From Candidatus Methylomirabilota bacterium (GTDB lineage: Bacteria; Acidobacteriota; Thermoanaerobaculia; Thermoanaerobaculales; Sulfomarinibacteraceae): DNA of 64,000 nt. Below the pieces are notes generated by a model. That model saw only the letters and a list, made by a program, of their open reading frames with translations, made no database searches and was not told the DNA's origin. Positions 27,037-35,346 of the stretch are shown here, one piece after another (within the stretch, counting starts at the first letter, position 1; every line of letters starts with the position of its first letter). The DNA lies in assembly GCA_035464095.1 (NCBI GenBank), contig DATHSO010000191.1:1009-65008 (forward strand). The letters run 5' to 3'. A program made the position numbers and the translations under genes.

Positions 27037-30000
27037 TCACAGCGTGATCTCGTCGGCATAGATCAGCCGCTGCTCCCACACCGGCGGCGGCGGTACGATG
27101 CCGATGAAGCCGAGGTCGGCCGGGTCGCCCGCCAGGCGTTCCCACTCCTCGACGACGACACGCCACCCGGGCTGATCGCCGGGACGCTGCAGCGGGATGT
27201 CCTCCGGCGCCGTCAGCTCGCCGACCCACGCGGCCTCCCACGCGGTCTCGCCGAACCCGCGAATGACGAGCTCGACGGCGGAAACGTTCTCCCAGCCGAG
27301 GTCGGTCGGGATCTCGGGGTCGCGGCGCTGCAGGCGGGCGACGACCGTGCGGTTGGTGGCGACCGCGTCGACGAGCTCCTCGAAGGTTGGCGGCTGTCGG
27401 AGGAAGCCGAGCCCGCGACGGCCGGGCACGGTGCGTAGTCCGACGGGTCCGCTCATGACGACGCGCACGTGGCGGACGTCGGTGCGGCTGACGCTGGTGG
27501 TGCGCTCGGGGGTCAGCTGCACGAAGTCGCAGCGCACGTGCTTCGACAGGTGGCAGCCGGCGATGCTGTCGGGCTGGTAGCGGGCGACCGCGAGACGGAC
27601 GAACGGCCAGAACGAGTCGCCGGGTTCGATGGCGACGTCGACGTACCACATGTTCCGGTCGGCGCTGAACTGGGGCCGGTAGCCGAGGACCGTGACGCTT
27701 CGGTTCTGAGAGTCGGCCGCGAGCCTGTGGGTGCCGGGAGGGACGACCGGCAGTGCGTCACCGGGGTCGTCGTCGAGGCCCGTCACCCGCAGCAGGTTGT
27801 CGAGCTCGAGGAACATCGCTCGCCGTTCGACCGGGGCGCTCAGCCACACCGGATCGGCGCCCCACTGGCTGACCACCGTGTGGTGGTTGGTATCGTCGCC
27901 GCCGGGCGCGAGCAGCACGCCGAGCAGCTCGTCCTCGCCGGAGGAGAACCACGGCCGCTCGAGGTACAGCCGGACACCGGCGCGGCGGCGGCGCCGCACC
28001 GCGACCGGTTGCTCGGGCTCGGTGCCGGACTCCCAGCGGAACAGCGGCAGCACCGAGTGCACGATCGGCGGAGCGGGAAGCGCCGAGCTCGGCACCGACA
28101 CCACGACCTCGGGACCGACGACGCTCTGACCGTCGTCCACCGGGAGATCGTTGCCGTTGCCGGCGGGGGCGAGGGTCTGCGGGTCGAAGTACTCGGGGAA
28201 GCGTGTTGCCGCCCGGAACCGGTAGCTGATGGTGCGGTGTTTGGTGTCTCCGAGCTGGTGCACCGGCAGGTGGATCCACACCGGGCCGACGCTTGGGATC
28301 TTGACGAGCGTGTCCTCGGTCTGGCCTGCCATGGCGCCGAGCACGGCGAGGTCCTCCTCGGGACGGATCTTGGTGGTGAAGGCGACGCCCTGCTGCGTGA
28401 GGGTGTGCGGCGCGGGCATGCTGAGGTCGTCGATGGGGTCGATCCAGTGCGCCTCGAGGGTGAGGGAGTCGGTGCTGGGACCGTGGACGTCGACGGCGCC
28501 GACGATGTGGGCCTCGGTGGCGTCCGTCGCGGGACGCAGCGCGAACAGCTGCGTCGGCCGCGGCGCCTCGAGCGGCCGTGGCACGGCGTGCACCAGCGTG
28601 ATGTCGTCGAACGGCGTCAGCGCCCACAGCCAGCCGTCGGCCGCGGCCTCGGCGACGTCGTGGTTGTCGCGGATCGCCTTCGGCAGCGAGCGCCAGATCC
28701 CGAACAGATCGAGCTCAGCGCGGTCGAGGGACGAGGCGAGGCGGAAGCGCTGGATGTCGCCGGGCGGCAAGCCGATGCCGAGGGTGGTGCCGGCGAGGGC
28801 GCCGGTCAGCTCGTCGGAGCCGTGCAGCACGAGGCGGAACGGCAGCCGCTCCGGCCAGCTCCCGGGGTAGCGGGCGGTGAAGCCCTCGGTGCCGAACGGG
28901 AAGGGGATGTGGCGGTCGCGCCCGGCCTCCGGAAAGACCAGCGAGATACCACGAGCGAGCACATCCGGCAGGTAGGGAAGGACGAGCTGGTCGGTGTCGT
29001 GAACGATGTACTGACCGGGGGCCGGCGCCTCGCCCGTGGACAGAGGCAGGGCCTTCATGGTCGACGGCGGCACCTCCGGGTCGTGGGCGAGCGCGATGCC
29101 CGGCTGGGGATCGCGCACGCTCGGGTCGTCGAGCCGCGGCACGTCGACGTCGAAGAAGGAGCCCGCCTCGCGCAGGGCGACCGCGAGTGCCTGGCGGTGG
29201 AGGTTGGCGTCGGAGGTTCCGATCGCACCGTCGAAGGCGCCGTGGAGCTCCGCCTCGGTCTGACTGGTCTTCGGAGGTGCGAGGTGGCGTTCGCCGGTGG
29301 CCCGGTAGCGCAGCTCGGCCGGGACGCCGGCCGCGTACGCGTCGGGTGGGGTGACGGTGATCTCCAGCGTCTCCATGTCCTGGGTGACGCCGGAGCGGAT
29401 GACCACCTGGCGCAGTGACTCGCCGGCGGACAACGGATGGCGGGCCACGACCGTGGGTGGCTGCACGGGATCCCAGCGCAGGAACGGTTTGAGCGGCGTG
29501 ACGGTGGTGACGAGACCGCTGATCACGCCGGGTGAGATTACGGCAGGGGCGGCGACCAGCCGACCGACGCTGTTGGCCTCGACGACGGCCGTCGAGGCGA
29601 CCAGCGGCTCGGCGTTCTCCGCGAGGCTCGCGCCGAAGGCGCGCTCGACCAGCGACGCCCGATCGGCGGCGACACGGGCGGTCCGGGGTCGCGCGCCGCG
29701 CACCCTGCGCAGCCGCCGCAAGACCTCGCGTTCGGCCTCGGCCTGTGGGGCGAGGACGCCCTCGGCGGCCTCGACGTTCACGGTCGGCGGTTCGGGCTTC
29801 GGTCCGCTCTGCGCGACCACGGCCTCGGTCTCGCCGCGGAGGCGCGACTCGAGCGGCGCCGCCACCGCATGGCGGGCTCCGATGGACTCGAGCACCGAGG
29901 AGACCGCCGACACCGTCGCGGACGACGGCGGCGGCACGGTGCCGATAAGGTGGGGCCGGCTGTTGCCGGCGAGGTCGACCCCCCACGCGCGGAAGGCGTA

Positions 30001-34600: not shown

Positions 34601-35346
34601 CCGCCGAGGCTGACGGTGCGCGGGGTGTCGTCGACCGCGAGGTCGCCGAGGCGCACCGCCACGCCGGCCCCGTGGGCGAGCAGCGCCCGGGTCCGCCGCA
34701 GATCGCGGGCCACGGCGGCGATGCCGGCGGCGGTCGAGGTGTCGGGCACCCTGCTGCGGGTGGTGGCCTTGCTGACCGTGAGACCGCGGGCGCCCACCGA
34801 CGCGACCAGGCCTCCCGGAAGGTGGAGGACGCCGGCGTCGGGCAGCACGATGAGGGCGCCGGGCTTCGGCCGTGCCAGCGGGTGGACGACCATCGACAGG
34901 CGCGAGATCGCTTCGAGAATGCCCTCCGTGCTGAACGGGATCTCGGCTCCGTCGGGGACCTCGAGGACCAGCCGGCTCGGCCGAGCGGGCAGTGCCGGCA
35001 CCGGCGGATGCGGCCGCTCGGGGTCGTCCTCGCTGTCCTCGTAGATCGCAGACTCCCCGAGGTGCTGGAAGGCGAAGCCGACGACCAGGCGCGAGCTCTC
35101 GCCGTCTTTCGGCCGGAGACGGGGATTCGGGCCGACCACGAGCTCCACACCATAGCCCTCGACCGACAGCGCCACCAGATCGTTCGCGCGAATGAGGTCG
35201 AAGGCGACGTCCGGTCGGCGGCGCGGCGGGTCGAGCCACGGCGCGACCAGGTCGCCCGGAAGGAGCCGTAAGCCGGCGGCGAGTCGGTTGCGATCGAGGG
35301 TCATCACCCGCGATCGGCGGCGTTTCGGACGTCGACGCTCCGGCAT
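31603..35346 (-). CDS. Giant hypothetical protein A (1247 aa): Arg-rich N-terminus, central Ala/Gln helical segment, Gly/hydrophobic C-terminal module
   Basis: ATG 35346 is preceded by GAGGGAGG; an alternative ATG lies at 35304. The N-terminus is MPERRRPKRRRSRV. The helical stretch DLEAAKTAAQEAVDDAGRLVQRAAGQAAEKLAAAQQAFQAAQQLQQTV lies within ~32620-33060. The C-terminal ~290 aa has alternating hydrophobic/Gly strands including FIGGGGWFLMRL. I recognise no catalytic motif. Confidence 0.8.
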   Translation of the reverse strand: MPERRRPKRRRSRVMTLDRNRLAAGLRLLPGDLVAPWLDPPRRRPDVAFDLIRANDLVALSVEGYGVELVVGPNPRLRPKDGESSRLVVGFAFQHLGESAIYEDSEDDPERPHPPVPALPARPSRLVLEVPDGAEIPFSTEGILEAISRLSMVVHPLARPKPGALIVLPDAGVLHLPGGLVASVGARGLTVSKATTRSRVPDTSTAAGIAAVARDLRRTRALLAHGAGVAVRLGDLAVDDTPRTVSLGGVEYAVPSLIGPGALVRPDRPVRIRPRAELSRSPRALETAIEAPFRLVISPSNRGGWKHAATPVAAEGAPHRVELWHSRLGVRVGDGHDVAIDERASWQRIVRAIWARDREAMPDWQDEKDPTHTNLPFRMSLDGADRHMLVRQTSETWLGQKNTPIAPDPVDVEALWLSSLGAWLDLHGDWKTLPYSKAGMASILSWDQVAPMGRDQYVRVAYPGYLFPFGHRAVLIKLTERKMKDAAPSVAGLYQRKFLVVNEPVKAFSSRSLPLTRVRLAPLVTPPIEDPGAAQSRFFFPIVDGEPFRFVLHCLDQEGRPVRLIAPLMWVAEHYTPHSDVDSAYNTSPLSEVPAGAQEIAFAAVKRGGDTMLPTHELKFAGTAKFATSIPRLATAKVEVPAVQHLSPVGHVTIKLAQVFVDHGFGGSQNAGEVWAELEGAPPALSFGGSTNAGSDRAGGFMQPDLPIRGLSRVKGTVGDVAGSAKGHFKPTDFLAGALPKLFGLVPLVDLLDAAGVDLSKDAPAVISEALDSIESFLSDLEAAKTAAQEAVDDAGRLVQRAAGQAAEKLAAAQQAFQAAQQLQQTVSNAVDDVIQAFGNLASASQTDIENALTAPFQALRQAAADMRQVAPLLPPLVNRRLLQLAAKLKNVVDAAEVFEDIFRFLNGLASGSKEVAFRFEWSPKLTSWPDNTNPVLKLQPDSLVLAVDGRASGKGSMGVDVLAELRDFALHLLPGAEMVRFKFEHISFRGGSDGKAEVDVVINDIEFVGLLGFVEVLKDLIPLDGFSDPPYLDVSPSGITAGFSLGLPNVAVGVFSLSNMSLGADVQVPFLGKVVTVGFNFCTRERPFALSVTFIGGGGWFLMRLSPDGLEVLELGLEAGAMLSVDFGVASGSISAVIGIYMRLEGDAGSLTGYFRLRGEVDVLGLISACIELYLALTYQFDTGKMVGKARLTIKVEVLFFSASVTIEAERRFAGSNGDPSFADVMVLPDGTSPAWSEYCAAFAGA

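Follow-up and report, generated by a model that had tools for sequence, protein, structure and literature searches.

In a 64,000-nucleotide (nt) stretch of contig DATHSO010000191.1, hereafter called the window, we analyzed two very large adjacent genes on the minus strand, designated A and B. Our results show that A and B are real genes under purifying selection and that they form a strict two-gene unit, in which A precedes B wherever upstream DNA exists in the loci examined. The cassette has spread by horizontal transfer, and neither protein was placed in any recognized family by profile searches or by Foldseek searches of PDB and BFVD. We tentatively suggest, at a probability of roughly 0.3, that the two proteins are obligate partners in one complex and that the cassette is an accessory conflict module, anti-phage/abortive-infection or toxin-like in kind, that moves horizontally.

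Gene A, the upstream member of the pair, occupies positions 31603 to 35346 of the window and encodes a protein of 1247 amino acids (aa), with a mass of 134 kDa and an isoelectric point of 5.9. Gene B, the downstream member, occupies positions 27037 to 31599 and encodes 1520 aa (167 kDa, isoelectric point 5.5). Both giant open reading frames (ORFs) thus lie where an initial annotation of this DNA had placed them, and the coding-type codon bias that it reported was borne out. The GC contents at codon positions 1, 2 and 3 are 0.71, 0.48 and 0.91 in A and 0.74, 0.50 and 0.91 in B, matching those of cydAB and other genes of the window, and the ORFs that overlap A and B lack this pattern. Comparison with a locus that is 82 to 84% identical (L092) gave ratios of nonsynonymous to synonymous substitution rates (dN/dS) of 0.16 (A) and 0.18 (B). 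The idea that the pair sits in a compositionally distinct island was not sustained, since its GC content of 0.70 to 0.73 compares with 0.65 to 0.74 over the window (local GC about 70%). The Arg-rich tract reported at the N terminus of A is not conserved among its homologues.

The two genes meet at a junction (positions 31597 to 31612, minus strand) that reads GCAGGAGCG-TGA-GAC-ATG. The TGA stop codon of A (31605 to 31603) is followed by GAC and the ATG of B (31599 to 31597), and an AGGAG sequence (31612 to 31608) lies within the last codons of A, 8 nt 5' of the B start, as had been described. In the other loci, 75 junctions were usable; the A stop and the B start are most often 3 nt apart in them (range, -8 to +22 nt), and most carry a GGAG-like purine tract in the last A codons before B. 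With so short a gap, and with the ribosome-binding site of B embedded in the 3' end of A, translation of the two genes could be coupled, and the recurrence of both pair order and short junction agrees with the earlier view of a coupled unit. Of the 76 junctions counted, 70 have TGA as the stop codon of A; L072, which is among the 76, is a parsing glitch, and its junction is normal. Because A and B share a reading frame in the window, stop-codon readthrough to give an A-B fusion was considered and rejected. The frame relation across the 76 junctions is random (25/31/20), which indicates that the in-frame layout in the window is a coincidence and argues for coupling rather than readthrough. At the C terminus of A, the motif YCxAFA(GA) (window 31606 to 31620) persists in Bacillus, although 59 nt separate A from B there; the terminal AFA is therefore retained for the protein itself and not solely as a ribosome-binding site for B. 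A relationship of A and B as paralogues was also rejected (hhalign probability, 0.1%).

Pairing and genomic context were compared at 82 loci, comprising 80 from a species scan and two looked up earlier. The scan combined pattern matching with tblastn in one genome per species and found relatives of B in at least 275 of 185,579 species genomes (about 0.15%), the figure being a minimum, as the scan relied on just two peptide patterns. By tblastn, A lies directly 5' of B in 77 of the 82 loci. In one further locus (L081), a very divergent A-like ORF of 1230 aa is found directly 5' of B, for which BLASTP gives an N-terminal match only (E = 3e-8), and in the remaining four loci the contig ends before A. 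Thus, the A gene stands 5' of B in all of the 82 loci with upstream DNA available, in agreement with the expectation that the homologues always occur as a pair. The same order is seen in distant pairs from Bacillus, Cupriavidus, Diaphorobacter, Streptomyces, Rhizobium and a termite-gut metagenome contig. Clustering of ORFs across loci revealed no third conserved gene.

An irregular A gene was observed in L093 (4321 to 8141), from a long-read metagenome-assembled genome (MAG) with a B that is 64% identical: there, A is split into two called pieces (775 and 135 aa) that precede an undamaged B, and it is either pseudogenised or affected by assembly frameshift errors.

The hosts of the B relatives include Actinomycetota (many Acidimicrobiia, as well as Gaiellaceae, Micropruina, Nocardioides, Streptomyces, Ornithinimicrobium and Mycobacterium), Pseudomonadota (Lysobacterales, Burkholderiales, Rubrivivax, Nitratireductor and Sphingomonas) and MAGs of Verrucomicrobiota, Polyangia (Myxococcota), Vicinamibacterales, other Acidobacteriota and one cyanobacterium. 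Identity to the B protein of the window is 52 to 53% in Lysobacterales and Verrucomicrobiota, 43 to 44% in Micropruina and 33% in Mycobacterium, and it reaches 50 to 52% over the full length in Lysobacter, Burkholderiales and Actinokineospora. This incongruence between identity and taxonomy points to horizontal transfer of the cassette. Among the named homologues of A, the closest one, at 88% identity, belongs to a MAG with the label Candidatus Sulfomarinibacteraceae (Acidobacteriota), most other named close relatives carrying Acidimicrobiia or Actinomycetota labels, and the cluster of the Cupriavidus homologue (A') includes a protein labelled Helicobacter pylori. Both labels are probably binning or contamination errors, although the former could alternatively reflect a recent transfer.

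Beyond these relatives, distant A'/B' pairs, in which B is about 30% identical and the A C-terminal domain 37% identical, are located on megaplasmids of the Bacillus cereus group, on the Cupriavidus metallidurans CH34 megaplasmid and on Rhizobium, Diaphorobacter and Streptomyces plasmids; some of the megaplasmids that carry distant pairs are conjugative. The Bacillus and Cupriavidus proteins that were scanned gave no Pfam or NCBIfam match. A profile of the C-terminal 343 residues of A matched 3,809 clusters (50% identity) at E <= 1e-3, 1,748 of them at E <= 1e-30. In full-length matches this domain is found at the extreme C terminus of proteins of about 1,000 to 2,150 aa, and it occurs in monoderms and diderms. 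The only fused domain detected in the longest A-like proteins was one Big_2, in a distant protein of 2,148 aa whose gene is followed by one encoding 1,497 aa without a Pfam domain.

Two of the plasmids deserve a separate description. Plasmid pRlX3 of Rhizobium ruizarguesonis carries two giant genes in tandem, for proteins of 2,489 and 2,569 aa (L091, 5350 to 20553). The first protein combines an A-type C-terminal domain with apolipoprotein-like helical repeats, and BLAST detects no similarity between the second and B; the two genes have a SIR2-family gene immediately upstream and, about 4 kb downstream, an IS110 transposase. A second giant pair had been suspected on plasmid pBwiPL1-1 of Bacillus wiedmannii (L087/L089) and proved instead to be a five-gene nonribosomal peptide synthetase cluster (condensation, adenylation, peptidyl carrier protein and methyltransferase domains), about 2 kb downstream of A'/B' on the opposite strand.

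In order to describe the architecture of the two proteins, we combined alignments with AlphaFold2 models covering residues 48 to 1247 of A (42 sequences) and residues 321 to 1520 of B (119 sequences; residues 1 to 320 left out). The N-terminal and central region of A (residues ~48 to 700; positions 33247 to 35205) is beta-rich and contains the blocks ETAIExPxRL, ELWH(S/T)RLG, GRDxYVRV and GHRAxLxKxTERK, which are conserved in alignments that include the diverse superfamily and retained in the Bacillus and Cupriavidus homologues. Residues 457 to 697 (410 to 650 in model numbering) were modelled with a predicted local distance difference test (pLDDT) score of about 85 to 94, and the more N-terminal part is poor. 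Four or five Ala/Gln-rich helices of about 30 residues follow (residues ~767 to 907; positions 32626 to 33048; 726 to 859 in model numbering, pLDDT 73 to 92). This bundle varies in length: it is missing in the Bacillus A' and about 140 aa longer in the Cupriavidus A', and in the giant Rhizobium protein it resembles apolipoproteins.

The C-terminal domain of A (residues 905 to 1247; positions 31606 to 32634) is predicted to be an up-down meander of about ten amphipathic strands of 9 to 18 residues, with the motifs DGFSDPP, GGGGW, GVASGS and FAGSNGDP and the terminal AFA(GA). It is the most conserved part of the pair, with a column identity of 0.77 to 0.92, and it is the part that is 37% identical to the Bacillus A'. 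Direct reading of the sequence shows that hydrophobic and charged residues alternate along the strands. The strands were modelled at a pLDDT of only 26 to 60 (mean for the A model, 63), so that the weak Foldseek matches of the meander to porin, autotransporter and TamA/B barrels (E = 0.02 to 0.4; target TM score, TMt, <=0.26) concern a model of that confidence. We found no internal repeats in this domain, and A has no match among the pore-forming toxin families of Pfam. Residues E290, W324, R454, D455 and R481 of A are invariant across phyla.

The N-terminal region of B (residues 1 to 550; positions 29950 to 31599) contains the blocks LHRARRFYERPE, PDFHER and SPVHVHExxFGWEGWSLSAPRPGK and the FN3-like strand motif LPRLRYGRSYAFRAWAVDLAGNS, all of which are invariant columns in three alignments (A1, A3 and A7); its modelled part, residues 321 to 550, consists of helices followed by a beta-sandwich (pLDDT 40 to 80). 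A poorly conserved helical linker (residues ~560 to 700; positions 29500 to 29922; 240 to 379 in model numbering) shows a column identity of 0.32 to 0.48 and a length of 145 to 232 residues across loci. Co-variation of this length with that of the A helical spacer was considered and rejected (r = -0.01). The remainder (residues ~703 to 1520; positions 27040 to 29493) is modelled as consecutive beta-sandwiches of FN3/macroglobulin/arrestin-like type with a few helices, and it is conserved to the final residue. The B model has a mean pLDDT of 80.6 and a predicted TM score (pTM) of 0.70, with residues ~710 to 1520 mostly above 90.

In PDB, Foldseek matched B to FN3 ectodomains, integrin alpha-V legs, complement C3/C5, A2ML1 macroglobulin (MG) domains and arrestins (E = 1.6e-5 to 1e-3). 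The TM scores relative to the query are at most 0.11, which indicates a likeness at the level of domains and not a global one. Matches in BFVD comprised FN3 proteins, a baseplate protein, tip attachment/host specificity protein J and minor tail proteins, with TM scores of at most 0.12. On the evidence of the model, B is predicted to be largely a scaffold of beta-sandwich domains. The earlier statement that Ig-like tandem repeats are absent therefore holds at the level of sequence and fails at that of fold. Residues D331, D333, H772, H1004, D1118, E1485 and E1487 of B are invariant across phyla.

Regular-expression searches of A and B for Walker A, HExxH, CxxCH, the CGEQ thioester, YD, LPXTG, lipobox and Tat motifs found none, and the proteins contain only 4 (A) and 5 (B) Cys residues; the absence of named motifs and the low cysteine content noted at the outset were thus confirmed. 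No 19-residue stretch of either protein reaches a mean Kyte-Doolittle hydropathy of 1.8. The peaks, at 1.5 to 1.73, lie mostly in predicted beta strands, so no transmembrane helix is seen. Since signal peptide, lipobox and transmembrane helix are lacking in the window pair and in the Bacillus homologue alike, the "envelope-associated" role suggested by the initial annotation has no direct support.

Searches of Pfam, NCBIfam, PADLOC, PHROGs and PDB sequences gave no match for B and sub-threshold matches only for A, all of them on the Ala/Gln-rich helices at residues ~750 to 900. These weak matches comprise baculovirus PEP_C, MakB, Mce, JetC, ZorA, tape measure proteins, apolipoprotein and designed bundles. 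Family profiles compared with all PDB sequences likewise produced helix-bundle noise for A and nothing for B, and so did the more diverse profiles (A6 and A7). Homologues number more than 742 for A and more than 481 for B, without a Pfam domain in any, and the 240 that were listed have neither a precomputed Pfam domain nor a meaningful name. The proteins are entered as "hypothetical protein", with sporadic misnamings as prefoldin, gas vesicle protein, ATP synthase b, apolipoprotein and ABC substrate-binding protein that are due to the helical region of A. No paper on the family was retrieved from the literature, whether by keyword or with the accessions of the Cupriavidus and Bacillus homologues, and the Rmet locus tags led only to the unrelated gig operon. 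The expectation that the pair belongs to no recognized family was upheld; its position outside any known kind means that no relationship is detectable, and not that a new mechanism is demonstrated.

The genes that surround the pair differ from locus to locus. The 115 immediate flanking genes fall into 163 Pfam families, of which the commonest, NTP_transf_3 (7 of the 115), probably reflects shared Micropruina synteny. The relative that is 82% identical has different flanking genes, and precomputed annotations around six loci show unrelated housekeeping neighbors. A functional link to the neighbors in the window, a secreted protease and a lipid-transferase paralog, had been suggested; neither recurs in the 82 loci, and the census of the 115 genes yielded no partner. 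The neighboring 782-aa and 1067-aa genes, Lgt, the 568-aa gene and CydA were rejected as parts of the system, as none of them recurs at any of these loci.

The patchy, transferred distribution of the pair, its variable context, its presence on plasmids and the occasional SIR2, TIR, patatin and NERD-UvrD neighbors are the reasons for the conflict-module reading proposed above. About 10 of the 115 immediate neighbors match defence-type hidden Markov models (patatin, NERD/UvrD, TIR and DpdF), and genes of a conflict type are found near distant pairs: SIR2 beside the Rhizobium giant, patatin in another Rhizobium and HNH/helicase/HD in Bacillus. As the genetics suggests, A and B would assemble in the cytoplasm into one large complex, in which the beta-sandwich array of B would recognize or scaffold and the C-terminal beta domain of A, alone or oligomerised, would be the effector and act on a membrane or lipid surface. 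This role is suggested for the A domain by its strand length, amphipathicity and weak fold matches. Neither protein showed a catalytic domain, so the mode of action would be expected to be structural or membrane-active and not enzymatic. The choice among structural, toxin and defence roles, left undecided by the initial annotation, is thereby narrowed only weakly.

A number of observations weigh against this proposal. We found no experimental or homology link to defence or toxin families, and the PADLOC set (PADLOC-DB v2, 5,027 models) gives nothing for B and only JetC/ZorA coiled-coil noise for A (E = 0.02 to 0.1). Most neighbors are ordinary metabolic or regulatory genes, and the roughly 9% of defence-type neighbors may represent background, as many PADLOC models cover generic domains. 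Homologues from different phyla share 50% identity over 1500 aa, a degree of conservation that is unusual in defence genes. The C-terminal domain of A is modelled at the low pLDDT given above, its Foldseek matches all have TM scores below 0.3 and E values above 0.01, and it is genetics alone that suggests an interaction of A with B. No SOS box or shared motif was found in 66 upstream regions; a loose alpha-type LexA half-site occurs once among them (385 nt upstream in L040), and the only shared 8-mers are GC-rich noise. Finally, A and B gave no tblastn match in 50,697 phage genomes and the B profile gave none in IMG/VR, which argues against a phage origin and is silent on the target.

A bolder idea, of low probability, is that A-B represents the first example of an as yet undescribed class of bacterial two-component machine that is very widespread. 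In such a machine the A C-terminal domain, on its variable helical spacer, would be a new pore-forming or lipid-enclosing module that works with a giant beta-sandwich scaffold, independently of known secretion, phage-tail and defence architectures.

We also weighed four other explanations. It is rather unlikely that the pair is a released binary-type toxin, made in the cytoplasm and leaving it by lysis or unlinked export, with B binding the target surface and the C terminus of A forming a beta-barrel pore. Plasmids of the Bacillus cereus/thuringiensis group, rhizobia, Streptomyces and Cupriavidus are typical bearers of host-interaction cargo, FN3/Ig-type arrays are typical of extracellular binding proteins, and the low Cys content and the long amphipathic strands at the A C terminus would fit such a toxin. 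However, the members examined have no signal peptide, no marker of type I, VI or VII secretion systems (T1SS, T6SS, T7SS) and neither a holin nor a secretion gene linked to the pair; Acidimicrobiia and Micropruina that live free in soil or sludge, with no known host association, account for many of the hosts; and neither protein resembles the toxin families of Pfam or NCBIfam.

The strong purifying selection and the many Arg, His, Asp, Glu and Trp residues that are invariant across phyla in both proteins would also be expected of an intracellular structural or enzymatic complex of physiological, non-conflict function, with an active site too novel to be recognized. The mostly metabolic flanking genes and the synteny kept within Micropruina, which suggests stable vertical retention there, agree with this. 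Nevertheless, the explanation is likewise rather unlikely: the pair occurs in only about 0.15% of species with a distribution incongruent with phylogeny, no pathway genes are linked to it, and no nucleotide- or cofactor-binding motif was found.

A third possibility, and quite an unlikely one, is a cytoplasmic lipid-binding or lipid-transfer assembly analogous to microsomal triglyceride transfer protein (MTP), lipovitellin, apoB or AsmA/TamB, in which A would enclose lipid and B would serve as scaffold. MTP and lipovitellin are the best Foldseek matches of A in PDB, over about 1,050 aligned columns (E = 1.8e-4 to 4.8e-4), with a common order of beta, helical and large beta-sheet elements, and TamAB is also listed. 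In the giant Rhizobium relative the helical spacer resembles apolipoprotein A1/A4/E (Pfam E = 4e-8, below the curated cut-off), as it does in PDB profile matches. Against this, the Foldseek probability is 0.2 and the TM scores are 0.06 to 0.09 on a model with a mean pLDDT of 63, the helical part is dispensable, as the Bacillus A' lacks it, and there is no Pfam signal for Vitellogenin_N, AsmA or DUF490. The patchy transferred distribution would be unexpected for envelope or lipid housekeeping.

It is very improbable that the pair is a domesticated remnant of an ancient phage tail tip, with A tape-measure-like and B a gpJ- or baseplate-hub-like FN3 protein: the helices of A weakly match PHROG tape-measure and tail families (best, phrog_58; E = 4.9e-4, 19.5 bits) and the BFVD matches of B include baseplate, tip attachment J, host specificity J and minor tail proteins, but the former are confined to low-complexity helices that match Mce, MakB, ZorA and designed bundles too, the latter are generic FN3 matches with the low TM scores given above, the phage collections contain no match, and tube, sheath, capsid and terminase genes are adjacent at no locus.

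The surroundings of the pair in the window are as follows. Two large genes on the plus strand (35716 to 38064 and 37581 to 40784; about 782 and 1067 aa) run divergently from A and have no Pfam, PADLOC or meaningful PHROG match; they never accompany A/B elsewhere and are a separate set of unknowns. An Lgt homologue (40738 to 41649; PF01790) comes after the 1067-aa gene. On the other side, the segments from 20774 to 23266 (minus strand) and from 23621 to 26186 (plus strand) hold an EgtD-type histidine-specific methyltransferase (PF10017), a CHRD-domain protein and then cydA/cydB, which converge on the 3' end of B; this context is ordinary and chromosomal. A 1314-aa protein (16730 to 20674, plus strand) with C-terminal GEVED, DUF11 and CARDB domains is probably secreted or surface exposed. 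The neighbor described earlier as a secreted protease was not confirmed as a protease. No Rfam element was found in the window and no tRNA near the pair.

A and B have a combined mass of about 300 kDa, are strongly conserved and have been exchanged horizontally, and the superfamily comprises thousands of sequence clusters. It reaches tractable or well-studied organisms and replicons, among them Bacillus cereus-group plasmids, Cupriavidus metallidurans CH34, Rhizobium, Streptomyces and the wastewater bacterium Micropruina. Unannotated families of such size and conservation are uncommon, and the strict two-gene design makes the pair directly testable. Were it a conflict or membrane-active system, it would provide a new effector fold; were it a physiological complex, it would reveal an unknown cell-biological structure.

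Comparison with known systems places these likenesses and differences side by side. With siphophage tail tips (lambda gpJ and T5 pb3/pb4 type), B shares a C-terminal ~800 residues built as a string of beta-sandwiches, matches to tail proteins in BFVD and an FN3-type strand motif, YxFRAxAVDxAGNxS; it differs in the absence of similarity in the phage genomes, in TM scores of at most 0.12 and in the absence of adjacent tail genes, and A is not a recognizable tape measure. Membership in extracellular contractile injection systems (eCIS), T6SS or tailocins found no support, as B has no PHROG match, A matches with its helices only and no tube, sheath, baseplate or ATPase neighbor recurs in the 82 loci. 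Alpha-2-macroglobulin and C3-C5, including bacterial ECAM/YfhM, resemble B as proteins of more than 1,400 aa made of MG/FN3-like sandwiches (C5, C3c and A2ML1; E = 4e-5 to 1e-4), but B lacks the signal peptide, lipobox, CxEQ thioester, A2M Pfam domain and PBP1C partner, and the global TM scores are 0.06 to 0.11. Surface adhesins with Ig-like repeats differ in that A and B have no signal, LPXTG motif or Pfam Ig/FN3 domain.

The lipid transfer proteins and AsmA/TamB share with A the order of a beta-rich part, a helical part and large amphipathic sheets; they differ in that A has no Pfam signal, a match probability of about 0.2 with TM scores below 0.1 on a low-confidence model, helices that are absent in Bacillus and B as a constant companion. 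Tc (ABC) toxins are similarly encoded by adjacent genes for very large proteins without classical signal peptides, sometimes on plasmids. However, they consist of three genes rather than two, and A and B lack the VRP1, neuraminidase-like, TcB-binding, RHS/YD cocoon and SpvB domains, with no Pfam or NCBIfam match to Tc-type domains at E <= 1 and no YD motif. From two-gene anti-phage or abortive-infection cassettes, A-B differs in having no match to the 5,027 PADLOC models, no NTPase, nuclease, protease, TIR or SIR2 domain in either protein, an unusually high conservation and no clear enrichment in defence islands. Nevertheless, it shares with such cassettes the two-gene design, the lack of a fixed context, the patchy spread across phyla, the presence on plasmids and the occasional SIR2, TIR, patatin or NERD-UvrD neighbors.

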